From Candidatus Nomurabacteria bacterium (GTDB lineage: Bacteria; Patescibacteriota; Minisyncoccia; Phycocordibacterales; UBA9973): a stretch of DNA of 51,150 nt. Location of the stretch: positions 1 to 51,150 of the forward strand of contig JARIGO010000001.1 of NCBI GenBank assembly GCA_029288805.1. Direction: 5' to 3'. Positions 4,357-36,479 of this stretch are shown here, piece after piece (position 1 is the stretch's first letter; each line of letters begins with the position of its first letter). The position numbers were made by a program, and so were the translations under genes. The notes below the pieces were generated by a model, which worked only from the letters and a program-made list of their open reading frames with translations, was not told the origin of the DNA and ran no database searches.

Positions 4357-4384
4357 GAAAAAACACCTTTACAGGTGTTTTTTC
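4357..4384. terminator. Bidirectional intrinsic terminator (nrdA / rnpB)
   Basis: GAAAAAACACCT-TTAC-AGGTGTTTTTTC, a perfect 12-bp stem between convergent genes. Confidence 0.85.
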
Positions 4385-4389
4385 ATTAT

Positions 4390-4658
4390 GTTGTACTCGT
4401 AAGCCGAATTCTGTTTTAGTGATCATTTATCTGTGATGCTTGTTACCAAGCACCTATAGCAGCACTTCCTTCGATTGCTCTCGGGACACGGCCTTGCACA
4501 CGGATAGACATTTAGCCGTTTCACTCCCACTAAAGGGATTCGTCACTGTTCGCAGTCCTATGCTTGCGCACGATGGGCATTACCCACTATCTTTTCGCTT
4601 TTTAACGAAGTGTGTTCGGACTTTCCTCTGCATGAATGCAGCGATCATTCGGTACAAC
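4390..4658 (-). ncRNA. rnpB: RNase P RNA, compact (about 269 nt)
   Basis: Minus strand reads GAGGAAAGUCCGAAC near the 5' end and AAAACAGAAUUCGGCUUAC near the 3' end. P1 is GUUGUAC/GUACAAC, P3 is CUGC/GCAG, and the P18-like hairpin is GGUGCUUG-GUAA-CAAGCAUC. Promoter TTGTGC (4687-4692)...TATACT (4665-4670). Confidence 0.93.
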
Positions 4659-4701
4659 AAGGCTAGTATACGGATATTATGAGATAGCACAAGCTTAATT
4701 A

Positions 4702-8505: not shown

Positions 8506-8527
8506 TTGTCACAAGTTTATATATAAC

Positions 8528-8562
8528 CCAAAAGGCCAGTCACTACGTGACTGGCCTTTTGG
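8528..8562 (+). terminator. Intrinsic terminator
   Basis: CCAAAAGGCCAGTCAC-TAC-GTGACTGGCCTTTTGG, 16-bp perfect stem. Confidence 0.9.
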
Positions 8563-8622
8563 CGTCTCTAAAGAAATAAATACAGGAGTTAGAGGTCGAA
8601 CTCCCTTATAAAAGTCAAACAA

Positions 8623-8654
8623 AAAAGCCTTTGCGAAATTTCGCAAAGGCTTTT
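8623..8654 (-). terminator. Intrinsic terminator for the minus-strand orphan gene
   Basis: AAAAGCCTTTGCGA-AATT-TCGCAAAGGCTTTT immediately past the stop at 8656. Confidence 0.85.
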
Positions 8655-8655
8655 A

Positions 8656-9075
8656 TTAATGATTCATAAAGGAAACGTCTGAAGCAATACTGAAAGAAAA
8701 ATTTTGGAAAAGGCTCAGTTGATCTTTTTTACGGGGCTTGGCTGGTTTGCGGGTGAGTATTTCAATGTATTTTTCATAAAAGGGGATTATGGATTTAAGG
8801 GTGGCCCACATTTCGTTGGTTATTGAAATCCCATCTTTATGCTTTGATCTCTTTTTATAAGAATTCAGCAGTTTGCTAAAAATCTTTCTTCTTATAGCAC
8901 TTTTTTCTGGTTTTGATTGCCAGTCCATAACTCTTATAAGAAAGTCTAAGGCATCCTTTTCTTTGGGCAGTATGTTTTTTGTTAATGAATCAATAATGAG
9001 TTCTTTGATCTCAGCGAGGGTCGGTTTTTTGTTGGTTTTCATCTCGTACTGGTTTGTTTGAATGCAGTATAGCAT
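8656..9075 (-). CDS. Hypothetical basic protein (true start probably MKTNKK at ~9042)
   Basis: Own promoter (minus strand TTGACT-16 nt-TGnTATACT, 9067-9094) and own terminator. No recognisable motif. Confidence 0.65.
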   Translation of the reverse strand: MLYCIQTNQYEMKTNKKPTLAEIKELIIDSLTKNILPKEKDALDFLIRVMDWQSKPEKSAIRRKIFSKLLNSYKKRSKHKDGISITNEMWATLKSIIPFYEKYIEILTRKPAKPRKKDQLSLFQNFSFSIASDVSFMNH

Positions 9076-9107
9076 CTATTGACAAAAAGTCAAGTTTTAG
9101 ATGTAGT

Positions 9108-12100
9108 TTAGAGAATTTTTATGTCATCGATCATGATGGTCGGCTTGTCACCGCGCTGGGCAATGGAGCATTTCATGGCAGCTACGGCGCCTTCCTTAAT
9201 CAGTGAGCCGATTTTTTTGAAGGCTTCAGGGAAGACTACGGCTTCAGCGCGGGCGCTCTTGTCCTGGATGGTAAGAAATGCCATCTTGGAATTATCCTTT
9301 TTGGTCATAATGACACGAGCCTGGTCGATATGGGCGACAATGAGCTGGTTCTTATCGAACTTCTTCTTTATAAGCGTACTGATGGTAGTAGTGGCTTTCT
9401 TGAGCTTGTCAGCATGTGAATCAAGCGGATGTCCCGAGATGTATAGGCCAAGCAATTCTTTTTCCCATTCCAGTTTTTGACGTAGCGATGCTGGCTGTGC
9501 AGGATCCATTTTCAAAACACTTTTAGGTTTGTCCTCCAGTCCATCAAATAGTGATACGTGTCCAGAGTTACTGAACTGACTGATGCCTTTGTGGAAAGCC
9601 AAGAGGTTTTCAATATTGGCACACAGCACGCCACGCTCACCGAAGTCATCCATGGCGCCGCACATGATCAATGCCTCAAGGGACTTCTTATTAAGGTTGC
9701 GATGCTGCACTCGTTCAAGGAAATCTTCTATGGACGTGAACAGTCCACGAGCTTTGCGTTCCTCAATGATGAACTTGCCGATTTCCTCACCAAAGTTTTT
9801 GATGTTCTTTAGTCCAAAGCGGATATTACGAGTGACGATTCCATTTTCAACCACTACGGTGAAGTCCGAGAAAGACTCATTGATGTTTGGAGGCAATACT
9901 GGATAGCCCATACGGTTGGCTTCAGCAATGTATTCACTACATGTTTCAATGTCGCCTGACTCGGCCGTCATACAGGCAGAGAGGTATTCGGCAGGGAAGT
10001 TCGCTTTCAAGTATGCAGTCTGGTATGCCACCATACCGTAACTCGCAGCATGAGCCTTGTTGAAACCGTACGCTGCAAACGGTTCAATTTTTTTCCAGAG
10101 GTCATCGATCTGTGGAATGCTCAAACCGCCGTATTCCTTACAGCCTTTGTAAAACTTATCCTTCTGTTCAGCCATTTCCGCAGGAATTTTCTTACCCATG
10201 GCTTTACGGAATTTGTCGGCATCAAGCCATGTATATCCAGCGAGACGAATGGATGTCAGCAACACGTCATCCTGGTACACCAAAAGACCGTATGACGCTT
10301 CAAGGTCGTCTTTCAAACGCGGGTCAGGATAGGTGACAAGGTGAGGATTTTTCTTGCGCTTAATGTATTCCGGAATGACTTCCATCGGACCAGGGCGATA
10401 CAATGCCACCATGGCCATAAGATCTTCGAGCTTAGTCGGCTGCAGCATTTTGATATTGGATGTCATGCCATCGCCGGCCATCTGGAAGACACCCATGGTT
10501 TCTCCTCGAGAAAGCATTGAAAAAACCTTCGGATCGTTGAGAGGAATGTTGTCCATATCAATGTCGATACCACGGATGGCCTTTACGCGCTCTACAGTGC
10601 CTGAAATGAACTGCAGGTTACGAATACCAAGCATATCGAACTTCGGCAGGTTTACCACGCCGTCACGGCCTCCTGAGAACATATCGTATTGGGTGATGAT
10701 CTTTCCTTCACCCTTGGTATCGTACTGGATCGGCGTATAGTCAGTGATGTCAGGCGTTGGAGCAATGACCACTCCGGCAGCGTGCACTGAGACGTGACGT
10801 ACGTTACCTTCGATTTTTTTTGCCATATCGATGATTTCCTTCGTACCGCGATCGGTATCGTACATTTCTTGGAGTTCCGGTACGATTTCTAATGCGTGAT
10901 CAATGGTCATGGGAAAACCCTGTGAACCCATTGGGATAAGCTTTGATATGGTGTCACCAACGCTGTATGGATAGCCAAGAGCACGAGCAACATCGCGAAC
11001 AGAACCGCGAGCAGCCATCGTTCCAAACGTACAGATCTGCGCTACTGCACCCATGCCGTATTTTTGGCGAGCGTATCCGATAAGGTCATCTCGTCGGTCA
11101 TCGGCAATGTCCAAGTCAATATCAGGAATACCGGGACGAAGCGGGTTCAAGAAACGTTCAAAGGGAAGCTTGTATTTGATGGGGTCAACGGTAGTAATAC
11201 CCGTAAGGTATGACACCAATGAACCCGCTGCGGATCCTCGAGTGTTTGTATAAATACCCATGTCACGTGCGGCGTGCACCAAGTCTGCTTCCACCAAGAA
11301 ATATGACGGAAAGCCCTTCTGGCTGATGACATCAAGCTCAAACTCTATACGTGTCCGTACTTCTTCCGTCATCTCGTAATTTTTTTCCTGAATGCCGAGC
11401 TCGACATTTTCGCGAAGTACTTGGTCATAGGTTTTGCCTTCAGGGATAGGGTAGGTAGGGAATTTCCATGGAGCCATTTCAATTTCCAAATTAACGGTTT
11501 CTGCGAGCTTCACGGTGTTTTCAACCGCTCCTGGCACGTCCTTGAATATCTCCATAGCTTCCGCTGCATTGATGAATGAGTAGTTGCCGGCCTTCATGGA
11601 CATTTTGGCATTGCCAACCTCTGTTCCAGTATTGATGGCTACAAGTGTGTCCTGTGCTTCCTTATCGTCAACGTGAAGGTAGTGAGAATCCCATGTGCCG
11701 ACAAGTGGTAGGTCCAATTCTTGTGCGATCTCTACGATGGTAGGAATAAGCGGCATGTACCAGTCAACGTCTTCGTGATGCATGACTTCCACATACACAT
11801 TCTCCTTGCCGAATGTTTTCACATACCATTGCAAGAGGTTTTTTGCCTCAGCCTTGTTGTCATTCTTAAGGTAATTGATGAAGCGACTTCCTGGGCAGCC
11901 AGAGAGACAGATGACGCCTTCGCTGTGAAGCTCAAGCAGTTCAGCATCCATGCGTGGTTTGTAATAGTATCCTTCAAGGTTTGCCTTTGAAACCAACTTC
12001 ATGAGGTTCTTGTATCCGGCATTGTTCTTTGCAAGAAGCGTGAGGTGGTAGCGCTTGCTATCAATACCCGGTTCCTTGTCAAAACGAGAGCGTTCAGCGA

Positions 12101-18468: not shown

Positions 18469-18777
18469 ATGGCTAAAAAAATTTCTGGAGGTGTGGCACA
18501 TGAGTTGCCAGAGGATGTGCGAAAAGCTCTCACCGCTGATGCTAAGGCGCTTGCATTGTGGGAAGACATTACACCGCTTGCTCGCAATGAATGGATCTGT
18601 TGGACTATTTCCGTCAAAAGTCCTGAGAAAAGAAAAGAGCATGTTGCTCGAATTGTTTCGCAACTTAAGGAAGGAAAACGCCGCCCATGCTGTTGGATAG
18701 GGTGTGTTCACCGCAAAGACAAGGCACTCAGCCCCTCTCAAAAATTCATCTTGCAATCAAGATCGAAAGCCAGATAA
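18469..18777 (+). CDS. YdeI/OmpD-associated family protein
   Basis: ELPEDVRKAL...WEDITPLARNEWICW...K.PE.R..CCW.GC. Start at ATG 18469, 6 nt after TACAAT. Confidence 0.85.
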   Translation: MAKKISGGVAHELPEDVRKALTADAKALALWEDITPLARNEWICWTISVKSPEKRKEHVARIVSQLKEGKRRPCCWIGCVHRKDKALSPSQKFILQSRSKAR

Positions 18778-20602: not shown

Positions 20603-20629
20603 GTTTCGGGTTCGAACGAAATACTTTGT

Positions 20630-21196
20630 CTAGCTAAACGCATGTAGTGCTTCCTTTATTCCATAAAAGACAATCACAAGACTTGCAGCACTGTCTGTCC
20701 ACCACCAACCTAGATATGTAGTAGCGAGTAATCCAATAAGTACTGATACCGCAAGCAATCCATCTATAACCGTCACTCGTGATTCCGCAATAAGGACGGG
20801 GTTGTCGATCTTTTGCCCCACCTTCTTTTTTCCATAGGCAAGCAGGAACATGACGATCGCGGTAACGGTTAGCCATATGATACCGTCAACGGAAGGTGAG
20901 GCATGAGAATGATGAGCTAGGCCGAACGTGACTTGAGTAACGATGTAGAGAGAAAGCAGGATAAAAGCGACCCCGATCAGCTTTGTTGCCAAACCTTCAT
21001 ATATTTTGTTAATAGCCCTTAACTGCCATATCACCACGACAGAGGCAAAAATTTCAATGACTGAATCAATGCCGAATCCAAACAACGAGAGAGAGGAAGC
21101 CTTTACTGCAAGCGCTATGACGATAACACACCCGATAACATTCCAACCGAGCGTAACGTATTCCAATAACAATCCTTTTTGAAGAGGGTTTTCCAT
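20630..21196 (-). CDS. Cation transporter (CDF-like, TM domain only)
   Basis: SLFGFGIDSVIE and AESRVTVID, with six TMs. Confidence 0.8.
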   Translation of the reverse strand: MENPLQKGLLLEYVTLGWNVIGCVIVIALAVKASSLSLFGFGIDSVIEIFASVVVIWQLRAINKIYEGLATKLIGVAFILLSLYIVTQVTFGLAHHSHASPSVDGIIWLTVTAIVMFLLAYGKKKVGQKIDNPVLIAESRVTVIDGLLAVSVLIGLLATTYLGWWWTDSAASLVIVFYGIKEALHAFS

Positions 21197-21220
21197 GAGG
21201 AAAGTATATCAGGTTCGAAC

Positions 21221-21724
21221 TTACTTATTTTGAAAATTTCTTAATCCTTCTGCCAATGTCTTCAACTTTTCAGTATCAGCAATTGGTCCGCCGCCAGAGC
21301 AAATCCACCCTTCATATTTGTCAAACCAAAATTCCTTTTCACTTAAAAACTGTTGCCAAATGCCTTTCTTTAAATTCTCAGTACCATGAAGGGGCATGAG
21401 CTTTATGTGAGCATGGTCGATACCCGTTCCTTCCATGAGCACGCCAACTCTTCCGACATCTTCATAATAGTTTTCCAACACTCCCGCAACTTCTTTGGAT
21501 GCAAGTATAAAACGCTGCAGCACATCGTCAGGCATTTTCATGACATCACTTTCATGGTGTTCCTTTGGAATAACACAGGTGAATCCTTCCGTGTTTGGGT
21601 CAATGGAAAGGAATGCCATAAACTCATCATTCTCCCAGAATATGCCAGGGGTCTGTATTCTTCCTGCTACTATCTCACAGAATATGCACTTGTTGTCTTG
21701 GGTTGTTGCGTCGTATGTTGCCAT
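21221..21724 (-). CDS. HIT family protein
   Basis: CIFCEIVAG, VIPKEHH, IDHAHIKL histidine triad variant. Confidence 0.88.
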   Translation of the reverse strand: MATYDATTQDNKCIFCEIVAGRIQTPGIFWENDEFMAFLSIDPNTEGFTCVIPKEHHESDVMKMPDDVLQRFILASKEVAGVLENYYEDVGRVGVLMEGTGIDHAHIKLMPLHGTENLKKGIWQQFLSEKEFWFDKYEGWICSGGGPIADTEKLKTLAEGLRNFQNK

Positions 21725-21782
21725 GAAGTAAGTATATCAGGTTTGCAACAGCGAGCGGTTTTACAGCTGTATGTAAGATAGT

Positions 21783-22952
21783 TTAGGAGTATTTTCTTTT
21801 GCTCCGAATGGTCGAGAATGCTTTGAGTTGTATTTTATTAAGTCGGGTAGGGGCCAAAGAAGTTAGCTCGCTGTAGACCCACAATTTCATAAGGGTAAAG
21901 TTCCAAATGAACGCTACCAATGTCGCCATGCATGCTGCCCAAATAGGATGGATGTGGAACAGACTCAAAAAGAGGGAAAGGGAAATAAGGTCCAAGGCCA
22001 GTCCGCCTGCCACTGTCAGATAGAAACGCACTATTTCCGTAATGCCCAATTTTGTTTTCTTTTTGAAGGTCCAATAGCGGTTGAAAAGGAAGCTTGAAAC
22101 CGTGCCGGCCAAGAATGAAATAATTTTTGCCACAATCAAATGGTCTGCAAAGAAATGATAGCGACTGATGAAATAGACATAGAGACCAAGATCAATCAGC
22201 GTATTAATGATGCCAACAATGGTGAATCGCACCATCTGTTCTCGGGGCAAGGCACCAAGACGACTCTGAAAGAGAGCGAATAATTCCTTAAATGCCCGGA
22301 TGATAACTTTGGGATGTGCGCCGGTAGCCACACCCTCGACACGAGCATAGTGTGAGACCGGAATTTCCTTAAAGGGAATTTTCTTACGCTGCAATCGAAT
22401 GAGCATCTCGGCGCTCATCATGGCGCCGCGGGTTTTTAGCGGTAGTGATGCCACCAGTTTTCGATCCATCAGTTTAAATGCACAATCAATGTCTTTGACT
22501 TTCAATCCAAACAATAAGCGATTTAAAAAATTCCACAATGCCGCATTCATGATGCGCAGGAAGTTGTCACGGCGTGGAGAGCGATAGCCAAGCACAATTT
22601 TATAATCAGGTACGAAGTGCATCAAAATGGCAAGCTCGGAAAAATCAAACTGCAAATCGGCATCAGTAAAAAAAATGTAATCGTATTGCGCCGCCTGAAT
22701 GCCACTCCACAGTGCCGCCCCATATCCTTTGTTGGGGTTGTGATGAACAACTTTGATATGCTTATTTTTTGCAGCCATTTCATCCGCAATTGCGCCAGTG
22801 TCGTCTTTGCTACCGTCATCAACAATGATGATTTCATAGGTAGAAGTCAGGGTGCTTACTACTGCCTCAGCCGCCTCCACACTATTGCGAATATTGGCTT
22901 CTTCGTTATAAGCGGGGAAAAATATTGAAAGGGAAATAGTTTGTTTATTCAT
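21783..22952 (-). CDS. GT2 polyprenol-phosphate glycosyltransferase (GtrB/DPM1-like) fused to a C-terminal GtrA domain
   Basis: FPAYNEE, IIVDDGSKD, NKGYGAA, FTDADLQF, DIDCAFKL, followed by RFTIVGIINTLID...FLFNRYWTF. Confidence 0.9.
   Translation of the reverse strand: MNKQTISLSIFFPAYNEEANIRNSVEAAEAVVSTLTSTYEIIIVDDGSKDDTGAIADEMAAKNKHIKVVHHNPNKGYGAALWSGIQAAQYDYIFFTDADLQFDFSELAILMHFVPDYKIVLGYRSPRRDNFLRIMNAALWNFLNRLLFGLKVKDIDCAFKLMDRKLVASLPLKTRGAMMSAEMLIRLQRKKIPFKEIPVSHYARVEGVATGAHPKVIIRAFKELFALFQSRLGALPREQMVRFTIVGIINTLIDLGLYVYFISRYHFFADHLIVAKIISFLAGTVSSFLFNRYWTFKKKTKLGITEIVRFYLTVAGGLALDLISLSLFLSLFHIHPIWAACMATLVAFIWNFTLMKLWVYSELTSLAPTRLNKIQLKAFSTIRSKRKYS
21799..21834 (+). repeat. Degenerate direct-repeat site S1 (att-like)
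   Basis: TTGCTCCGAATGGTCGAGAATG matches S2 (28469) at 20/22 nt. Overlaps the 3' end of the GT2-GtrA CDS. Confidence 0.7.
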
Positions 22953-23019
22953 ATCGTAGTAATAAGCATAGGGAAATACCCCCTTTATATAATACGAACG
23001 GATAATTACTATTACTTTC

Positions 23020-23712
23020 ATGCAGCAACATTATCGTTACAACATACTGCCGATCGTCTTTGGCGCAATACTGATCATCATGCTTTGCGCGGCAGGGAAC
23101 GTTTTTGCCGCACATCACGATAATAATGGTAATCATGGAAATGATACGCAAGCTCCAGCTGCGCAAAATACCACCGCCAGCACGCAGAGTCCTGCCACTG
23201 CTGATCCTGCTCCTACCAGTCCGGCCAACGATTCACCGGCTGCTACCCCAAGTGGTAATACACAGTCTCCTGCTACCTCACCAGCCTCCACTCCTTCCAC
23301 CACTGATCCTTCGCAGCCAAACAATCCGGCACCTCCATCACCTGCAGCAGTGGACGATGGAAAGGATAACGGAAATATGCATGATCATGGTAACGATGAA
23401 AATCAGCCGGTCGATACTGATATTTATAATGAAATCATACCGACTGTCGTTCCGTCACTTCCGGATCCGCCATCTGTTATTACTCATTCGGAATTTGATT
23501 CGGCTATCAAGTCTGCCATTACCAAGAATGCACCACAATTAGTCGATCGAATTCATGCCACTAAGTTCACTACCGCTTCAAATTACTACACGCCTACAGG
23601 GTTTAGCGCTACTACCACTCGAAACATAGAATATACGGCATATGGTATGGCGCTGGTCGGACTTATCATGATAATGCAAAACAAAAGGGTGCTTCAAAAA
23701 TTTACAGCTTAA
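23020..23712 (+). CDS. Pro/Ser/Thr-rich surface protein with signal peptide and C-terminal TM anchor
   Basis: Signal-like N-terminus (..NVFA), long PAST-rich tract, C-terminal YGMALVGLIMIM followed by basic residues. Confidence 0.7.
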   Translation: MQQHYRYNILPIVFGAILIIMLCAAGNVFAAHHDNNGNHGNDTQAPAAQNTTASTQSPATADPAPTSPANDSPAATPSGNTQSPATSPASTPSTTDPSQPNNPAPPSPAAVDDGKDNGNMHDHGNDENQPVDTDIYNEIIPTVVPSLPDPPSVITHSEFDSAIKSAITKNAPQLVDRIHATKFTTASNYYTPTGFSATTTRNIEYTAYGMALVGLIMIMQNKRVLQKFTA

Positions 23713-23732
23713 CATTATAAACAGTTATCTAT

Positions 23733-24971
23733 ATGGTGTCTTTCTTAACTCGGATGACGGTACTACAAAAAATAGGTCTCGCACTGCTCATCGTCGCCGT
23801 ACTTTTGTACATACTCGTGCGGTACGAAAATAGTCCTAAAGCGAAAGTGCCATTGGTATTCTCCCAAAAGGAACTGCTCTCAACATTATGGCAAGCATAT
23901 AAAAGCGATAACATTGAAAGCGGTAGTAATCGTACCCTTGATAAACAACAGAATAATATTACTACCTCCGAAGGAGAGAGTTATACCATGCTGCGAGCGG
24001 TATGGATGGATGACCAAGCGACGTTTGACGCTAGCTATAAGTGGACAACCGACATTCTGCAACACAAAAATGATCATTTGTTCAGCTGGCAATTTGGCCA
24101 ATTACCGGATAAAAAATATGGTGTCTTAACCAATCAAGGTGGTCAAAATGCCGCCAGTGATGCCGATAGTGATATTGCCCTGGCACTGCTCTTTGCACAT
24201 GAGAAATGGGGTAATCAATACTATCTTGATCAAGCCAAACTGATCATTAAAGACATATATAAAAATGAAGTGGTGACCATTAACGGCAAGCCTATTCTGG
24301 TTGCAGATGACGTTGAACAATTTTCGTCTAGTCGTGTGGTTATCAATCCCTCATACTTCGCACCATATTCGTATCGATTGTTTGCCATTGTGGATCCTCA
24401 GGATAATTGGAAGGGTGTCATCGACAGCAGTTATGATATTTTGCAGCAAACCACCACCATGCAGCTGAATGGCGTGAACGGCACGCTGCCGCCTAACTGG
24501 GTAGAGATGGATCATCACAGCGGCAGTATCCGTGCTGTTACTGATAATTCATCACTGACAACGCAGTACAGCTACGATGCCTTGCGCATTCCGTGGCGCA
24601 TTGCCTTGGATTGGCAATGGTATCAAGAACCGCGTGCCAAAAGCTACCTTGACTCATTGTCATTCTTTGAACAGCAATGGCAGGCTCATGGCAAACTCAG
24701 TACGGTCTACAACCATGACGGCAGTGCTCCTACAATCTTAGAAAGTCCGGCTATGTACGGCGGTGTCATTGGCTACTTCATGACCAGTGATCCTGCTGAT
24801 GCTAAAAACGTGTACGCTCAGAAACTGCAATTGTTGTACGATCCCGATACCAATGCTTGGCGTAAGGTCTTAAGCTATTACGATGACAACTGGGCCTGGT
24901 TCGGAATCGCCATGTACAATAACTTGCTGCCAAATCTCGGGTCGACTATTACCAGCCAAGAAGCGAAATGA
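23733..24971 (+). CDS. Glycoside hydrolase family 8 (BcsZ-like endoglucanase)
   Basis: TTSEGESYTMLRAV, ASDADSDIALAL, INPSYF, YDALRIPWRIALD. N-terminal TM anchor. Confidence 0.92.
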   Translation: MVSFLTRMTVLQKIGLALLIVAVLLYILVRYENSPKAKVPLVFSQKELLSTLWQAYKSDNIESGSNRTLDKQQNNITTSEGESYTMLRAVWMDDQATFDASYKWTTDILQHKNDHLFSWQFGQLPDKKYGVLTNQGGQNAASDADSDIALALLFAHEKWGNQYYLDQAKLIIKDIYKNEVVTINGKPILVADDVEQFSSSRVVINPSYFAPYSYRLFAIVDPQDNWKGVIDSSYDILQQTTTMQLNGVNGTLPPNWVEMDHHSGSIRAVTDNSSLTTQYSYDALRIPWRIALDWQWYQEPRAKSYLDSLSFFEQQWQAHGKLSTVYNHDGSAPTILESPAMYGGVIGYFMTSDPADAKNVYAQKLQLLYDPDTNAWRKVLSYYDDNWAWFGIAMYNNLLPNLGSTITSQEAK

Positions 24972-24972
24972 T

Positions 24973-26526
24973 ATGCAGCATCCTGAATATCCAAACGAAT
25001 TCCTTAACGGCAAGGTGTCAAAAATACTAATCATCCTGAACACTCTTCTGGCCAGTGTGTACTTCTATATCCTGGTCTTTGTCTTTCCGGTTGGTAACAA
25101 GGTTTTGTTTGGGCTGCTGGTATTCGGTGAGGTCTTTCACGTGTGGCAATTGCTTATGTTTCTTTACACCATCTGGGATCGTAAACGAACCGTGGCACCG
25201 GACCCGCAGTATTATCCCGCGGTGGATGTCTATGTCACAGTGGCCGGTGAGCCGGTCAGTGTTATTGAGGAAACGTTGCAAGGGATCACTGCTATGGATT
25301 ATCCGGATTTCAAAGTGTACATTTTGAATGATGGCTACGTGGCCAAAAAAGACAATTGGCAGGACGTTGAAACGTTGGCTGCTCAATACGGTGCCGTTGC
25401 TATCACCCGTAAAATCGGCGGAGGAGCCAAGGCGGGTAACATTAACAATGCGCTCAAGCAAACCGCCAATCCTTTCGTTGCTATTTTTGATGCCGACCAT
25501 ATCCCTCATATGGATTTCTTAAAAAAAACCGTACCGCATTTCAGTGATGAAAAAGTGGCCTTCGTGCAATCGCCGCAGTACTATAAAAATTTTCATGAAA
25601 ATGAGGTTGCCGGTGGTGCATGGGAGCAACAGCAACTCTTCTTCGGTCCGATCTGTGAAGGTAAGAATCGTCTTAACGCTACCACGATGTGTGGTACCAA
25701 CATGGTCATTCGCCGCGCCGCATTGATGGAAGTGGGCGGCATGTGCGAAGAAAGCATTGCTGAGGATTTTGCCACCGGCATGTTCATGCACTGCAGAGGC
25801 TGGCGGTCCGTGTATGTGCCAGAAGTGTTGGCCGAAGGATTGGCACCGGAAGACTTTTTGTCATACTACAAACAACAATTACGATGGGCTCGCGGGGGAT
25901 TGGATGTCTTGTTTAAATATAACGTGCTCTTTACTTCCGGGCTAACCTTTGCGCAGCGGCTGCAGTATCTTTCATCGGTCTCTTTCTTTTTCTCAGGCAT
26001 TGTGGTCGTGATTAATGCCGTCATTCCGCTTGTCTTTTTCTTCACCGGAGCAGTACCATTTCTCATTTCGACCATGGTGTTGGCAACAATCTTCTTACCG
26101 TACATATTCGTAACCTTGTATACATTGCAGACATCAACCAATTTTCACTTTACCTATCGATCATTGGCCTTTTCGGTCGGCTCATTCGGCATCCATATCA
26201 AAGCCTGGCTGTCGGCTTTGTTTGGCGGCAAGGCCACGTTTGAAGTGACATCAAAAAAGAAATTGAGCGGTAACTTTTTGAATTTGGTACGACCGCATAT
26301 CGCATACATTGTCTTGGCAATTGTCGGTGTCGGCTATGCCTTATGGCGCGATGGATTGACCGCCTCATTGGTTGCAAACGCTTCGTGGGCATTGATCAAT
26401 TCTATTCTCTTCAGTGAGTTTGTATTTGTAGCCATGCCGGAAAGTGAGATAAAGAAGGATGTCGATAAGAGCCGCAAGGTTGTGCGTAGCATTGTGATGA
26501 GGCCACGTAATATTTCAAACATATGA
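24973..26526 (+). CDS. Processive GT2 cellulose-synthase-like catalytic subunit, no PilZ domain
   Basis: NDG, AKAGNIN, FDADHIP, VQSPQ, CGTN, AED and QQLRW (D,D,D,QxxRW) with flanking TMs. Ends about 30 aa after the last TM. Start at ATG 24973. Confidence 0.9.
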   Translation: MQHPEYPNEFLNGKVSKILIILNTLLASVYFYILVFVFPVGNKVLFGLLVFGEVFHVWQLLMFLYTIWDRKRTVAPDPQYYPAVDVYVTVAGEPVSVIEETLQGITAMDYPDFKVYILNDGYVAKKDNWQDVETLAAQYGAVAITRKIGGGAKAGNINNALKQTANPFVAIFDADHIPHMDFLKKTVPHFSDEKVAFVQSPQYYKNFHENEVAGGAWEQQQLFFGPICEGKNRLNATTMCGTNMVIRRAALMEVGGMCEESIAEDFATGMFMHCRGWRSVYVPEVLAEGLAPEDFLSYYKQQLRWARGGLDVLFKYNVLFTSGLTFAQRLQYLSSVSFFFSGIVVVINAVIPLVFFFTGAVPFLISTMVLATIFLPYIFVTLYTLQTSTNFHFTYRSLAFSVGSFGIHIKAWLSALFGGKATFEVTSKKKLSGNFLNLVRPHIAYIVLAIVGVGYALWRDGLTASLVANASWALINSILFSEFVFVAMPESEIKKDVDKSRKVVRSIVMRPRNISNI

Positions 26527-28007
26527 ATACACAGTCTTGGATCAGTCGTAATAGAGCCGCCGTTGCCATTGTTGGATGCATGGTATTGGTAGTAGTGTTG
26601 TCTGCAGCCTTTTTCTTAAAGCAAAGCCTGCGTTTGGACGAATCGCAAAGCTTGTGGCAAACCAGTCACTCTGTCATGAAAATCTTTAATATTATCGCTC
26701 AGGATGTGCACGTACCGCTCTATCACATCATGCTGCATTTCTGGCAAATATTTTTTGGCAATGGTGTGGCCACAGCTCGAGTATTCTCGCTGCTGTTCTT
26801 TGTTCTAGCCATTCCGGCCCTCTTTAAATTGGCAAAGTTACTATATGGGGAAGAGGCGGCAATTTTTACCATCCTGCTCTTTTCCATCTCGCCATTCATG
26901 AATTGGTATGGCAATGAAATTCGCATGTACAGCCTCTTCACGCTAGTGGTGATATTGAATATGTACTATTTTGTCCGTATCTACAAGGAACGTGACTCGG
27001 AAGATCAAAATGCTATTTGGTTTTTGTATATCGTCACGGTTATTGCTGGCATCTTCACGCACTATTTCTTTTTCTTTGCACTGTTCAGTGAATTGATTTT
27101 CTTCATTACTCATCGTGACAAGTTTGCTCCCAATGCAACCAAGCGGTTTATCTGGACTATCGTGCTGGTTGTTGTTGCCTTTGCACCATGGGTACGATAT
27201 GTCTTGCATTTGGGCAGTATCAGTAATAGTGAGCCGTTACTGGCTCCACCGACATCCGTTAACGTGTTCAACACCTTTTCGCAATTCCTGTTCGGTTTTC
27301 AGATTAATTACGTCAACACCATCTTGGTGTCGTTCTGGCCGGTCACTATCTTGCTGGGTTTCCTAGCTCTGCGAAAACGTAAAACCATTTCCGCCGACAC
27401 CGCCTTCCTGGTTATCTGCTTTATTGTGCCGAATATTCTGGCATTTATCGTCAGTACTTTTGTCTTGCCGTTATATTTGAGTCGATATCTGATCTTCACA
27501 CTACCGCCTATGTATATGTTATTGGCAGCCTTAGCGGTATCCTATCCGCCCAAAATCAAAAAGCTTTTTATGGGTATCCTAATCAGCGTCATGATTGTGA
27601 CCCTGGGGGCGGAGATTGTCAGTGCACAAACACCAGTGAAGGAAGACTATAAGCAGGTCGTTAATTATATTCAAAGCCATTCGTCGTTTGATGATGTCAT
27701 TATTGTCTCAGCACCGTTTACAATCTATCCGATTGATTACTACTACAAAGGGCCGATAGCTGCCCAGACGTTGCCGATATGGAATCGTGACAACTATGGT
27801 CCTATACCGCCGTTCAATGAATCCACCTTGCCACAACAGGTCAAACAGATTACGGCAGGCAGTCGGAATGTTTGGGTCGTACTGAGTTATGACCAAGGGT
27901 ACGAAAAAAACATTCATGATTATTTCGAAAGTCATTATCAGAAACTATATCAGCAAGTTTTTTCTCCGGACCTGACTTTGTACGAATATAAGATACGATA
28001 CCCATAA
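26523..28007 (+). CDS. GT-C fold membrane glycosyltransferase (ArnT/PMT-like)
   Basis: SLRLDES near the N-terminus, DVHVPLYH, EIRMYSL, many TMs, and a C-terminal extracytoplasmic domain. Confidence 0.85.
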   Translation: MNTQSWISRNRAAVAIVGCMVLVVVLSAAFFLKQSLRLDESQSLWQTSHSVMKIFNIIAQDVHVPLYHIMLHFWQIFFGNGVATARVFSLLFFVLAIPALFKLAKLLYGEEAAIFTILLFSISPFMNWYGNEIRMYSLFTLVVILNMYYFVRIYKERDSEDQNAIWFLYIVTVIAGIFTHYFFFFALFSELIFFITHRDKFAPNATKRFIWTIVLVVVAFAPWVRYVLHLGSISNSEPLLAPPTSVNVFNTFSQFLFGFQINYVNTILVSFWPVTILLGFLALRKRKTISADTAFLVICFIVPNILAFIVSTFVLPLYLSRYLIFTLPPMYMLLAALAVSYPPKIKKLFMGILISVMIVTLGAEIVSAQTPVKEDYKQVVNYIQSHSSFDDVIIVSAPFTIYPIDYYYKGPIAAQTLPIWNRDNYGPIPPFNESTLPQQVKQITAGSRNVWVVLSYDQGYEKNIHDYFESHYQKLYQQVFSPDLTLYEYKIRYP

Positions 28008-28008
28008 T

Positions 28009-28446
28009 ATGAAATTACAGCTACTTCATCTCCAGCAACACGGATCATTGTTCCAGGCCATTCGCTTCATGATGGTTGGCGTTCTTAATACGCTTGTTGA
28101 TATCGTTGTGTATTTTATGCTCACTCGCTTCACGGGCTATTTCGATCATCATATTCTGATAACGAGAATCATTTCGTTTCTGTCCGGATCCGTCTGCAGC
28201 TTCATACTCAATCGTATTTGGACATTTGAAAAACGAGACAAAATCCAAGGTTGGGAATTGCTAAAATTCTACGTGACGGTTGGCATGAGCTTGTTGATCG
28301 GCCTCTTTTCAATGCAGTTCTTCATCAAGGCCTTTCATCTCTATGATCTGATTGCTTTGGCCATATCCATCATCTTCACGTTCATCTGGAATTTCACCAT
28401 TTCTAAATTCTGGGTATTCAAAAAGAAAGAAGAGTCATTTATATAA
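28009..28446 (+). CDS. GtrA-family flippase-like protein
   Basis: RFMMVGVLNTLVD, SFILNRIWTF, WNFTISKFWVF. Confidence 0.9.
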   Translation: MKLQLLHLQQHGSLFQAIRFMMVGVLNTLVDIVVYFMLTRFTGYFDHHILITRIISFLSGSVCSFILNRIWTFEKRDKIQGWELLKFYVTVGMSLLIGLFSMQFFIKAFHLYDLIALAISIIFTFIWNFTISKFWVFKKKEESFI

Positions 28447-28468
28447 AATGATAGCCACAGTTCATAAT

Positions 28469-28504
28469 TTGCTCCGAATGGTGGAGGATGTTCGAAAGTG
28501 TTTG
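28469..28504 (+). repeat. Direct-repeat site S2 (att-like)
   Basis: TTGCTCCGAATGGTGGAGGATGTTCGAAAGTGTTTG, 29/36 identical to S3. Its final TTG begins a TTGACA -35 box. Confidence 0.8.
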
Positions 28505-28541
28505 ACAGATTATGAAATAGAGGTAATCTGAAACAAAACAA

Positions 28542-28967
28542 ATGAATATGGAAAGGAAACACTTTTACAAGAACCATGAGGAGGTTATATCAATCCTTAC
28601 CAAAGACTACGGTTTTAGATATGACGGCCTGGGAGACAATTACGAAGAATGTTTTCGTAAAGCCTCAGATAAGCCCGAGACAATCTTTATTCACCCAATG
28701 TTTTGCTCATACTACATGGCTTCATCACATGTCCTATTTGCAGAGAGACTCCACGAGTTCAACGTTGAAAGTGATCATAAAAGTGAAAAAAGTCAGTTAA
28801 TCACTTTTCGAAAACTATTAATACATCTTGATGAAGTAGCAATAAAAGAAGGTCTGCCGACCGTATCGGCTGTTCAAAAGCTACCTAACCTTAAAGAGGC
28901 ATTACCAGTACCTACTTTTGTTAAACAGAAGAAATTGACTCTGTGGCAAAGATTAAGCCCTTGGTAA
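28542..28967 (+). CDS. Hypothetical protein (single-gene cassette between S2 and S3)
   Basis: 141-aa ORF with upstream TTGACA and downstream terminator 28987-29010. Confidence 0.7.
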   Translation: MNMERKHFYKNHEEVISILTKDYGFRYDGLGDNYEECFRKASDKPETIFIHPMFCSYYMASSHVLFAERLHEFNVESDHKSEKSQLITFRKLLIHLDEVAIKEGLPTVSAVQKLPNLKEALPVPTFVKQKKLTLWQRLSPW

Positions 28968-28986
28968 GATACCTTTACTTTTCCCC

Positions 28987-29010
28987 AAAATCCCTTTTAT
29001 GGGATTTTTT
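28987..29010 (+). terminator. Intrinsic terminator
   Basis: AAAATCCC-TTTTAT-GGGATTTT followed by a T-run. Confidence 0.7.
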
Positions 29011-29014
29011 TTAT

Positions 29015-29050
29015 TTGCCCCGAACGCTGGACGATGTTCGAACCTGGTTG
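29015..29050 (+). repeat. Direct-repeat site S3 (att-like)
   Basis: TTGCCCCGAACGCTGGACGATGTTCGAACCTGGTTG. Resembles the antisense tRNA-Asn 3' end TGCTCCCCCGGTAGGATTCGAACCT (29419-29443). Confidence 0.8.
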
Positions 29051-29137
29051 ATAAAAGCGTGTCTCATATTTCAGTCTTACTTTTGGTATTTGTTATGGTC
29101 TATATAGTCGCAAATTTATTAAGCGCGACTGAGTTAA

Positions 29138-29347
29138 ATGACAAACGTAGAAAAAAGATACTGTATTAAATGTAAGAATCCCATGAATCTTGTAATGCTT
29201 GGCGACTTCCATGCCGTTGCGGGCAGTCAAGATGTGAAGAGTAGGATAAGAGTTGACGTGTGCACTCTTGTCAATGATGGCATAAAGTGCGCCGAGTTCG
29301 GCATCAAGAAGGAAAGCGGGGACATTGTAAGTGTGCTCCCCCGGTAA
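29138..29347 (+). CDS. Small hypothetical protein, possible zinc ribbon
   Basis: CIKC...C(x8)C in 69 aa. Converges on tRNA-Asn. Confidence 0.5.
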   Translation: MTNVEKRYCIKCKNPMNLVMLGDFHAVAGSQDVKSRIRVDVCTLVNDGIKCAEFGIKKESGDIVSVLPR

Positions 29348-29420
29348 TCTCTTGCCGGGGTTCGCATTTTCAGAAAAGAAAAAACGCCCTTGAGAGGCGT
29401 CCTTTCTTTTCGTTCAAATG

Positions 29421-29492
29421 CTCCCCCGGTAGGATTCGAACCTACGACCAATCGCTTAACAGGCGACTGCTCTACCGCTGAGCTACAGGGGA
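29421..29492 (-). tRNA. tRNA-Asn(GTT)
   Basis: Minus strand TCCCCTGTAGCTCAGCGGTAGAGCAGTCGCCT-GTT-AAGCGATTGGTCGTAGGTTCGAATCCTACCGGGGGAG. CCA not encoded. Confidence 0.97.
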
Positions 29493-30047: not shown

Positions 30048-31109
30048 ATGTCTACAACAAATCAAAGAAAAACCAAAATCGTGGCTACAATTGGCCCAGG
30101 GTCTGAATCAAAAGAAAACTTCACAAAACTCCTTCATGCCGGTGTTGATATCGCCCGCACAAACATGAGTCATGATGACCAAACTATTCATGAGGCTCGC
30201 ATTCACAATATCCGTGCCGCAGCTGCAGAAGCAGGCATGCCTATCAGTATTCTGCTTGACCTTTCAGGTCCAAAGATCCGTATCGGAGACTTTGCCAATG
30301 GTCCGGTAGAACTCATTCCAGGCGCAGAGTTCATTCTTTCTACAAAGGAATGCGAAGGAACAGCTGAAAAGGTATTCTTTAACTTCCCAGAAATTGCAAA
30401 GGAAATGAAGCCAGGTCAGGTGATCATGATCGATGATGGTCGTCGCAAGCTTGTGGTAAACAAGGTAGAAGACGGTGACATCTATACCACAGTGGCTGTT
30501 GGCGGCACTATCAAGGGACGTCGTGGCGTCAACCTTCCAAATGCATTCCTTACTATTTCTGCACTGACAGAAAAGGACAAGAGCGACCTCGAATTCGCTG
30601 TGAAGCAGGGTGTGGACTTTATCGCATTGTCATTCGTGCGTACGGCAAAGGATATCGAAGAACTTCGCGACCTTATCAAGCAGCATGGCGGTAATCAGCC
30701 AATTGTTGCAAAGATTGAGACTCCGGAAGCTATAGAGCGCATTGATGAAATCATCGCCGCAACAGACGCTATCATGGTAGCGCGTGGTGACTTGGCAGTT
30801 GAAATCGGTCATGCCAAAGTGCCTGCTGCTCAGAAAATGATGATCAAAAAGGCCAATGCCGCTGGCAAACCAGTGATCGTTGCAACACAGATGCTTGAAT
30901 CAATGATCAAGGCTCCAGTTCCAACACGTGCTGAAGTGTCTGACATTGCCAACGCTGTTCATGATGGAGCAGACGCAACAATGCTTTCAGAAGAAAGCTC
31001 TCTTGGTGAATTCGCTGTTGAAGCAGTCTCTATGATGGCTGAAGTAATCGTAGAAACTGAAAAAGACCTCGGCTTGAAGCCAGAAGACGCTATTGCGTGG
31101 AAGAAATAA
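30048..31109 (+). CDS. pyk: Pyruvate kinase lacking the C-terminal regulatory domain
   Basis: [54 protein letters not shown]. Stops at 353 aa. Confidence 0.96.
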
Positions 31110-35645: not shown

Positions 35646-35669
35646 TATCTAGGAATTTCCTAGATAAAT
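35646..35669. repeat. REP-like palindrome, left of RAYT
   Basis: TATCTAGGA-ATT-TCCTAGATA. CTAGGAATTTCCTAGATAAAT (35649-35669) is identical to 36369-36389. Confidence 0.85.
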
Positions 35670-35709
35670 CTTTAAATAAAATTGAGCGCTCTTTTTGTAT
35701 AGTCACCAT

Positions 35710-36372
35710 ATGATGGCTTTACGAAAAATATCCTTTGCAGAAGGTGAGTATTATCATATTTATAGTCGCGGTAACAGCAAACAAAAAATTTTTCACGATG
35801 CTGCTGATTATCAGAGATTTATGATGTTGCTGTATGCCTGTAATCAAGAAAACGCTTTCAAGATCAACAATCTTCCAAAGGGTAAAAATATCTACGATAT
35901 TCAGATGGGAAAACGCATAACCTCATTAGGGACTTATTGTTTAATGCCCAATCATTTTCACCTTCTAGTTAAAGAGACGATGAGTGATGGAATTACCATT
36001 TTTATGAGAAAAGTTATGACTGCCTACGTTATGTATTACAATAAAAAATATAAACGAACCGGTAAGCTGTTTGAAGGACCGTTTATAGCAGAACATATTA
36101 CTGAAGATCGATATTTAAAATACCTATTTGCATATATTCATTTGAACCCAATAAAGCTTATCGATACCCAATGGAAGGAAAATGGTCTAAAAGATGTCTG
36201 TTCTGCCAAACGTTTTTTATCTTCGTATAAGTACTCAAGTTTTTTAACATATATTGAAATTCAACGGCCAGAAAACAAAATTATTACCCTCTCAGATTTT
36301 CCACCCTATTTTTCAAAAATAGGGGATATGTGGAAAGAGATAAACTCATGGCTTAATTATAAAATTAGCTAG
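35710..36372 (+). mobile_element. REP-associated tyrosine transposase (RAYT / Y1 HUH transposase)
   Basis: YYHIYSRG, YCLMPNHFHLL (HUH), YNKKYKRTGKLF, AYIHLNP, YSS. Start ATG 35710, 6 nt after TATAGT. Confidence 0.9.
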
Positions 36373-36389
36373 GAATTTCCTAGATAAAT
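36369..36389. repeat. REP-like palindrome, right of RAYT
   Basis: 21-nt direct repeat of the left copy, overlapping the RAYT stop codon. Confidence 0.85.
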
Positions 36390-36479
36390 GGCAGCACAGA
36401 TTTATTGACTTTTAATAATATTGTGATATAATGATACTGATAATAAACCAATAGATCTTTAACATAAAACTTAATAACC

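Follow-up and report, generated by a model that had tools for sequence, protein, structure and literature searches.

The window analysed here, a 51,150-nucleotide stretch of a Candidatus Nomurabacteria genome (contig JARIGO010000001.1), carries three copies of a short repeat, S1 to S3, beside an intact tRNA-Asn(GTT) gene. On balance, S1–S3 are probably the attachment sites of a cassette array that is anchored at this tRNA and reshuffled by site-specific recombination, with the recombinase encoded elsewhere. The array is found in a clade of Paceibacterota ('Nomurabacteria', within the Patescibacteria or Candidate Phyla Radiation (CPR)). It is integron-like in its logic, but it is not an integron. 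From the comparisons below we infer that the exchange is enzymatic and site-specific; the nature of the enzyme, the direction of exchange, the place of the crossover, present activity and mobilisation in trans are treated conditionally throughout.

A preliminary description of this DNA had reported the three repeats, and their positions, strand and match counts were reproduced: S2 and S3 agree at 29/36 positions, S1 and S2 at 20/22. Degenerate patterns built from the S pairs detected no further copies in the 51,150-base window and gave 0 matches in 100 dinucleotide-preserving shuffles of it. The family as a whole has the consensus tttttaTTTGCTCCGAACGTTGGAGGATGTTCGAAnnTGTTTGA (also given as TTTGCTCCGAACGYTRGASGATGTTCGAAC) and numbers 41 distinct copies after removal of duplicates, with high information content over 27 nt, from TGCTCC to TTCGAA. 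A weak TTTGA is conserved just after S across the 41 copies, at the position occupied by TTGACA and TTGATA in the window. S1 is the most degenerate site in the window as well as the most distal; its left half is intact (TTTGCTCCGAATGGT) and the match runs through ...ATG, with the right arm lost. At least 15 Nomurabacteria/Paceibacterota contigs carry S, the motif being present in independent assemblies from NCBI, JGI, ENA and Logan, and 11 more small contigs, each with 1–3 copies, came from a pattern scan of 241 million metagenome records. One related locus, L006, holds at least 13 copies in 7.4 kb, nearly one per gap between small genes.

To place S in its genomic context, we used pyruvate kinase, which lies beyond the tRNA, as an anchor. 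A scan with one genome per species returned 19 Nomurabacteria/Paceibacterota contigs with 63–89% protein identity; all relatives are metagenome assemblies, examined over at most 10–14 kb on each side of the tRNA. Across L001–L019 the backbone of pyruvate kinase, HPF, Fmt, Def, HisRS, LepB and Pth is syntenic, and the 3′ (tRNA-distal) side has almost nothing in common and is different in every genome. Genomes that carry S have pyruvate kinases 65–89% identical to that of the window; S-bearing MAGs include DATJJU01, JAZKAB01, JBDSNU01 and JARIGS01, and L092, L010 and L011 come from relatives that lack S. A profile search of the window and 80 loci gave 29 S matches. All lie on the plus strand and 3′ of the tRNA, and they are confined to CPR relatives; the conserved backbone has none, and neither do 61 unrelated loci. 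Likewise, in ten pyruvate kinase-anchored contigs, 26/26 copies lie on the plus strand 3′ of tRNA-Asn. This fixed orientation is indifferent to how neighbouring genes are oriented: of the 41 copies, 20 are followed by a gene on the same strand and 17 by one on the opposite strand, and 4 have no gene within 400 nt downstream. A T-run precedes S in 28/41 copies, and an A-run follows it in 16/41, where it marks the terminator of a converging gene.

The units between sites are mostly single genes of 0.3–0.9 kb with one S each; most blocks have their own terminator, and often their own promoter. Their cargo (OmdA, glyoxalase/PhnB, DinB-family, nitroreductase, HxlR, NUDIX, UDG and methyltransferases) consists of typical accessory genes. 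The preliminary description had asked whether gene content between sites varies among close relatives. It does, and the sites lie only on the variable 3′ side of tRNA-Asn, in one orientation; in the sequence examined the motif is not scattered genome-wide, nor is gene order fixed across relatives.

Within the window, S1 and S2 enclose exactly the six-gene GT2-GtrA...GtrA cluster, S2 and S3 one gene with its terminator, and S3 and the tRNA an open reading frame (ORF) of 69 aa, as had been described. The whole region has an unoccupied counterpart. In L006, a HIT gene with 92% amino acid identity to that of the window lies directly beside tRNA-Asn; in the window the two are separated by 7.6 kb that begins at S1. 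Because HIT adjoins tRNA-Asn in L006, the stretch from 21.8 to 29.4 kb is an insertion relative to that locus, and the pair shows the intact tRNA and empty site in a relative that are looked for in tRNA-targeting elements. The 92% identity of HIT, against 66–80% for backbone genes in the same comparison, is a suggestive but weak signal of horizontal transfer, as HIT may simply be more conserved.

Borders of homology coincide with S in several comparisons. S sites flank the 141-aa cassette in the window, L006, L001 and L109, and its neighbours differ each time. Between the window (28465–29053) and L006 (5532–6122), homology starts with the first base of S2 and ends with the last of S3. The L109 copy, at 89% amino acid identity, sits on an 834-nt contig that begins inside the upstream S, right after TGCTCC, and its downstream site retains only TTTGCTCCGAAC. 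L004 and L081 have several cassettes in common at 89–94% identity, and one segment stops at a degenerate S, beyond which the two are unrelated. The block 1 operon is kept as a unit in L096–L098 (PMT_2 71% identical) and also in L099, which is another contig from the metagenome-assembled genome (MAG) that yielded L005; in L096–L099 neither S sites nor tRNA-Asn is nearby. Homology of block 1 to other genomes covers 21868–22958 and 23843–28427, ending 40–70 nt inside S1 and S2. S1 overlaps the last codons of the GT2-GtrA ORF, as noted before, and the C-terminal tail that reads through S1 is a non-conserved extension, 15–25 aa longer than the homologues. We considered whether the right half of S1 came from the native 3′ end of the operon; the alignment gives no support for this. 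S1 and S2 have in common a private left-half variant, CCGAATGGT, absent from all other copies. This looks like the pattern of a duplicated attachment core, which would flank DNA inserted into the S located ahead of the 141-aa cassette.

A second line of evidence comes from two flanking modules. The T-module (~90 nt), composed of a T-type hairpin, a terminator and TTTTCGCTCRAn, is joined at TGCTCC to the tRNA-Asn body in the window and L007, and to the S body in L002, L003 and L086. The U-module (~60 nt) is independent of the T-module and corresponds to the HIT promoter region, AGGTTCGAACTCTCAC...TTCAAAAAA. It is joined at (G)TGCTC to the tRNA body in L006, and to the S body elsewhere in L006, in L081 and in L019; the spacer between HIT and S1 in the window is a diverged copy. 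S body and tRNA body are interchangeable at TGCTCC. Recombination between an S and the end of the tRNA would be expected to produce this arrangement, in which one left flank is joined to either partner through a single hexamer. RecA is ill-suited to such swaps, since six common bases are too few.

Site quality also follows the anchor. L108, which is L006 extended to the left, is a 13-copy array in which quality drops with distance from the tRNA (rho = −0.66, p = 0.018, n = 12), as scored with a profile built only from other loci to avoid circularity. This gradient fits new blocks entering near the tRNA and older sites decaying.

S itself consists of TGCTCC, a left arm CGAACGT, a centre TGGAGG and a right arm ATGTTCGAAC(C), about 30 bp in all and with a fixed direction. 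One way to read it is as a pair of imperfectly inverted arms that flank a 6-bp centre, a layout that would resemble tyrosine-recombinase core sites such as dif. In our own parse, made from the sequence, the division is 11-6-11, GCTCCGAACGT-TGGAGG-ATGTTCGAACC, with 8/11 symmetric arm positions, and it is supported by a perfectly symmetric variant in L089, GGTTCGAACAT-TAGACA-ATGTTCGAACC. The same locus (L089:1725–1775, equal to L091:440–490) contains a perfect 36-nt palindrome, GTCGGGTTCGAACATT-AGAC-AATGTTCGAACCCGAC, made of two S right arms, at distances of about 400 nt to a normal S and 900 nt to an intron-containing tRNA-Asn.

In the array that we propose, a recombinase whose gene lies elsewhere, in the genome or on a mobile element, would recombine S with the tRNA 3′ end or with a resident S. 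On the tRNA, its target would be the hexamer TGCTCC together with the T-loop-like GGAT..TCGAACC, both common with S. New blocks would enter beside the tRNA or at an existing site and leave the tRNA undamaged, and older blocks would be pushed outward as their sites decay. A more specific form of this proposal is possible, and we advance it only tentatively: an undescribed gene-capture system of CPR/Patescibacteria, in which the tRNA-Asn 3′ end would serve as the attI analogue and dif-like, double-stranded sites of 28–30 bp as the attC analogue, with a recombinase elsewhere, possibly of the Xer family or a domesticated integrase, moving self-expressed single-gene cassettes and occasionally operons.

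Several observations weigh against recombination at S by a dedicated enzyme. Foremost is the enzyme itself. As the preliminary description had it, the array lacks an integrase: neither an integrase nor another recombinase gene was found in the 51-kb window, over ±10 kb of the relatives or along the 14 kb to the left of the L108 tRNA, and the gene table of L092 likewise has no integrase. The tyrosine-recombinase box II motif is absent from the window and 35 related loci, and the 25 Pfam families seen most often in 126 array ORFs include no integrase, nor did Pfam show a recombinase among the window's ORFs of unknown function. The window also holds no Xer gene. The match between S and the tRNA is the next difficulty. 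The resemblance of S to the tRNA 3′ end, proposed in the preliminary description, holds for TGCTCC and the T-loop-like GGAT(GT)TCGAACC and for nothing more, and the tRNA model finds no match in the S copies of the L006 array; S is 5 nt longer, and because of this difference in spacing S and the tRNA end are not equivalent core sites. The crossover may lie at TGCTCC, to which the flank swaps point, but four S copies, S1 included, match through ...GGATG and then diverge. Isolated right-arm cores, GTTCGAAC, also exist, 6 times on the variable side and 0 times in 71 kb of backbone. A further breakpoint between L004 and L081 falls inside a common promoter element and not in S, so homologous recombination also shuffles the region. 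Finally, the statement that S occurs only near tRNA-Asn draws on the 51-kb window, some 70 kb of flanking backbone and one further contig of an S-bearing MAG (L099).

Of the other explanations, the one that survives best is that the sites are fossil scars, leftover attachment sites from serial integrase-bearing elements that targeted tRNA-Asn, in the manner of tycheposon-type and other tRNA islands, and later lost their integrases and other element genes, so that nothing would move today and no platform would be served in trans. A classic partial tRNA 3′-end copy is seen in the T-type element, which recurs in the window, L002 (twice), L003, L007, L019 and L010. In the window, an exact 13-nt copy of the tRNA-Asn 3′ end (TGCTCCCCCGGTA), overlooked in the preliminary description, occupies 29337–29349 within a strong hairpin (DNA fold −8.7 kcal/mol, z −3.8), and this partial copy forms the last codons of the 69-aa ORF. 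About 4 kb of decayed mobile-element genes lie between a T-type element of L002 (5520) and the tRNA, the tRNA-distant sites are decayed, and no integrase was found, all of which favours this view. S, however, is not a copy of the tRNA end: where the T-type element has 13 exact nucleotides, S has only TGCTCC and GGAT..TCGAACC with 5 extra nt, and it is a distinct motif with 41 copies in genomes whose pyruvate kinases are only 65–89% identical. Regular units of 0.3–0.9 kb, each a single gene with one S, are unlike the outcome of independent integrase deletions; moreover, tRNA-near sites are near-perfect, and the 141-aa cassette occurs in four contexts. We therefore regard fossil scars as unlikely.

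Among the decayed genes of L002 we noted a DNA-methyltransferase fragment (5560–6030), a helix-turn-helix protein and, by tRNA-Asn at 8515–9354, a 279-aa IS200-TnpA/ABC chimera, whose N-terminal ~70 aa are IS200-type TnpA-like (YHIVFPLKYRK) and are followed by the C-terminal ATPase half of an ABC transporter. At L010:9414–9665, tRNA-Asn is inverted relative to pyruvate kinase, and its last 13 nt with about 17 nt of flank (CTAAAATAGTGTGCTCCCCCGGTA) are repeated 154 nt away in the same orientation, which is another partial duplication of the tRNA end.

A second alternative, which we consider rather improbable, makes S a passive cis element. S would act as a protein-bound regulatory or insulating element, for instance an operator with the dyad CGAAC-N10-GTTCG or the palindrome GGTTCGAACC, placed between transcription units in an accessory-gene hot spot, and blocks would be exchanged by natural transformation and RecA acting on any conserved repeats, with no dedicated recombinase. 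CPR bacteria are thought to take up DNA, and the lack of a recombinase in our searches suits such exchange. So does the position of S between a terminator T-run (28/41) and a −35-like TTGA. The palindromic core GTTCGAAC stands alone at window positions 20610 and 21213, just upstream of minus-strand genes (HIT and the cation-efflux gene CDF), and again upstream of HIT in L006, and a conserved extended −10 promoter lies 5′ of both HIT and CDF. In addition, a second promoter/operator element recurs in the arrays, and one L004/L081 breakpoint lies inside it. Against this, the orientation of S follows the tRNA (26/26) and not the genes (20 co-oriented, 17 opposite), and 16/41 copies are followed by the terminator of a converging gene. 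The tRNA/S swap occurs at a hexamer, far too short for RecA; the private left half of S1 and S2 brackets a 6.7-kb insert; and S is found 0 times in 71 kb of backbone, which has promoters too.

The second element (~55 nt) lies upstream of many array genes and reads CACCATACAACCTTCCCTTGACTTTGGCAAGrGGGAGGGTAGAGT. We located it at L004:8734–8811 and L003:1373–1443, in L014 (3 copies), L081 (3), L012, L019 and L086–L088. It holds a −35/−10 pair with an inverted repeat around the −35 and looks like a shared promoter plus operator. As for the HIT and cation-efflux genes of the window, both on the minus strand, they have in common a 26-nt 5′ region (21190–21215 and 21718–21743; CCATGArGwAAGTATATCAGGTT), which on the coding strand presents an extended −10 (TGATATACT) 7–8 nt from the ATG. 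An extended −10 so close to the start codon suggests that the two transcripts may be leaderless or near-leaderless. Minus-strand array genes of L003, L006 and L019 have this arrangement upstream as well.

Chance similarity or mis-assembly of the variable region, for which one could cite the MAG sources and the several contigs that break at the locus, is refuted by the comparative data: 0 matches are expected from shuffles, the same motif occurs in independent assemblies, and a repeat of ~30 nt is shorter than the k-mers of 127–141 implied by the prefixes k127_ and k141_ in several of the contig names, and should not have led to false joins in those assemblies.

We also tried and rejected other identities for S. 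An RNA or tRNA-like element is not supported. No Rfam family reaches threshold in the window, and the S copies of the L006 array are unmatched even at E ≤ 5, the tRNA model included. S folds weakly as DNA (−1.5 to −6.4 kcal/mol, mostly no better than shuffles), and the potential 7-bp stem shows no compensatory changes. The peptide L-[LP]-R-x-[VL]-[DE]-D-V-R, which the preliminary description had read from S2 and S3, is correctly translated but is an artefact of briefly open frames; all three frames are open for only ~10–18 codons each side, and a coding reading was discarded. The same description had assigned promoters to the sites. TTGACA and TTGATA do follow S2 and S3, but a downstream gene in the right direction holds for only about half of the copies (20 co-oriented against 17), and a strict sigma-70 scan found no promoter at S2 or S3. 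With the direction of S independent of gene direction, S as a promoter was rejected. An origin as a phage or plasmid attP was likewise not borne out. The full S pattern had 0 matches in 2.9 million viral contigs, a looser right-half pattern produced chance coding matches only, and a tRNA-Asn-end pattern found only a phage tRNA array.

The window also encodes a RAYT/IS200-like Y1 transposase at 35695–36372 (Pfam Y1_Tnp, 29 bits), with the palindrome CTAGGAATTTCCTAGATAAAT, given also as CTAGGAATTTCCTAG, directly repeated on either side of it (35646–35669 and 36367–36390), and followed by a low-GC stretch (0.335 over 36–37 kb). This gene is conserved beside pth in the S-free locus L092 and is absent from the sequenced flanks of most S-bearing loci. 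An origin of S from RAYT and its repetitive extragenic palindromes (REP) was rejected, as the gene has palindromes of its own and is kept in the S-lacking L092.

Table 1. Coordinates of the tRNA-Asn array and its flanks in the window.
Feature	Position	Strand	Basis or remark
HIT-family gene	21221–21724	-	Pfam HIT; left flank of array
HIT promoter region, diverged U-module	21725–21798	+	Alignment; ends at TGCTCC of S1
S1	21797–21835	+	Intergenic/terminal repeat family; array site most distant from tRNA
Block 1, six-gene cell-envelope polysaccharide operon	21783–28446		Pfam and comparison with L096–L099
GT2-GtrA	21783–22952	-	Block 1
Thr/Pro/Ser-rich protein	23020–23712		Block 1
GH8 glycosidase	23733–24971		Block 1
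Cellulose-synthase-like GT2	24973–26526		Block 1
PMT_2/GT39	26523–28007		Block 1
GtrA	28009–28446		Block 1
S2	28467–28505	+	Complete site; TTGACA immediately after
Block 2, 141-aa protein	28542–28967	+	No Pfam match
Intrinsic terminator of 141-aa gene	28987–29012 (hairpin 28987–29008)	+	T-run touches S3
S3	29013–29051	+	Complete site, then TTGATA
Block 3, 69-aa ORF	29138–29347	+	Coding status uncertain
T-type element	29334–29368	+	13-nt tRNA copy, then hairpin CCCCGG..CCGGGG and TTCGC
Terminator hairpin and conserved stretch TTTTCGTTCAAA	29384–29419	+	With T-type element, ~90-nt T-module ending at tRNA TGCTCC
tRNA-Asn(GTT)	29420–29492	-	Array anchor; 3′ end faces array; intact
Pyruvate kinase	30048–31109	+	First backbone gene beyond tRNA

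The 69-aa ORF of block 3 has no homologue among the related loci L001–L020, and exact-sequence look-ups of pyruvate kinase and the 141-aa protein returned no record. GC skew and composition over 21.8–29.4 kb show no clear anomaly that would serve as an island signal. The tRNA-Asn of the window has no intron. In L001 (9267–9612), L004, L008, L011, L012, L089 and L090, a ~270-nt insertion splits the anticodon loop, and for this reason ARAGORN calls no tRNA-Asn there; the L001 insertion matches the group I intron model (Rfam RF00028, 79 bits, E 2e-20). In three independent assemblies (L009, L016 and L018), the contig breaks within 50 nt of the tRNA-Asn 3′ end, which is consistent with strain-level differences in what follows the tRNA.

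An OmdA/YdeI-family protein is encoded at 18469–18774 of the window and recurs in the variable region of many relatives. Its homologues are ~75–83% identical, some coming from Patescibacteria, Eremiobacterota and Thermoanaerobaculia by source name, and the family is either unusually conserved or widely exchanged. OmdA homologues gave no route to the sequence left of the arrays: the contexts fetched were unrelated, the family being ~80% identical across phyla. Elsewhere in the window, a 16S rRNA gene, represented by its 3′ end, occupies positions 1–525 and is not followed by a 23S rRNA gene (unlinked rRNA genes), the RNase P RNA gene lies at 4384–4660 on the minus strand, and the cumulative GC skew peaks near 42 kb.

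How does the array compare with known systems? The preliminary description had called it integron-like, and in part this stands. Like integrons and clusters of attC sites lacking an integron-integrase (CALINs), it has co-oriented sites, variable and mostly single-gene cassettes and a fixed insertion end, with the tRNA in place of attI; small accessory or stress cargo, decayed distal sites and, as in CALINs, the lack of an adjacent integrase are also alike. The likeness does not extend to the parts. attC sites are imperfect palindromes with R″/L″-L′/R′ boxes (RYYYAAC...GTTRRRY), recognised as folded single strands. They form hairpins of 57–141 bp, whereas S is ~27–30 nt, folds weakly and shows no covariation, and by inspection the R-box consensus and the attC R/L boxes are absent from it. 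Integron cassettes depend on Pc for expression, and here the cassettes have their own terminator and often their own promoter beside a tRNA anchor. The host clade is Patescibacteria, and no intI is present.

In Streptococcus thermophilus, accretion of cis-mobilizable elements (CIMEs) and integrative and conjugative elements (ICEs) is said to place integrase-less segments with att sites in tandem at one site, presumably mobilised in trans. Those are few, large, ICE-derived segments, unlike the dozen single-gene units with a dedicated 30-bp site seen here. REP/RAYT systems also have short intergenic repeats with dyad symmetry, and a RAYT-like gene is in the window, but S is not dispersed (3 copies in 51 kb, all in the array), does not fold into a stable hairpin and points in one direction only.

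The pdif modules of Acinetobacter plasmids and the integrative mobile elements exploiting Xer (IMEX) are Xer-dependent (PMC6449649, PMC11705084). Their ~28-bp sites, with 11-bp imperfect inverted arms and a 6-bp centre, have a layout into which S can be parsed; they too bracket recombinase-less modules of one to few genes, and a host recombinase acting in trans, as it does on them, would be the counterpart in the array. pdif sites, however, alternate in orientation and lie on plasmids, whereas S is always direct (26/26), chromosomal and beside a tRNA, and its centre is itself conserved. The tycheposons of Prochlorococcus carry their own tyrosine or serine integrase and a replication module, with partial tRNA flanks (bioRxiv 10.1101/2020.12.28.424599). 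Together with additive flexible islands, they are like the array in that an island sits at a specific tRNA 3′ end with the tRNA intact, in tandem accumulation and in partial tRNA copies, here the 13-nt one of the T-type element. The array differs in its single cargo genes without a mobility gene and in a repeated S that is a distinct motif; an integrase of their own, which tRNA-targeting elements encode at one end, was not found in the arrays searched.

A full-text literature search found no description of cassette arrays in Patescibacteria. The array is a variant of site-bounded cassette arrays and tRNA-anchored islands, with a real chance that its recombinase and site define a new system. 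CPR/Patescibacteria have tiny genomes whose accessory gene gain and loss are poorly understood, and a tRNA-anchored array would offer a concrete route. From the location of block 1, an operon for cell-envelope polysaccharide, which probably helps to determine interactions with host or phage, may lie inside an exchangeable region. The 30-bp site provides a search handle, both for the cassette pool in metagenomes and for the recombinase by co-occurrence. If our reading is true, the tRNA-Asn array would join integrons as a second type of cassette platform, made of parts that seem unrelated to theirs, and would bear on how often such platforms have evolved.

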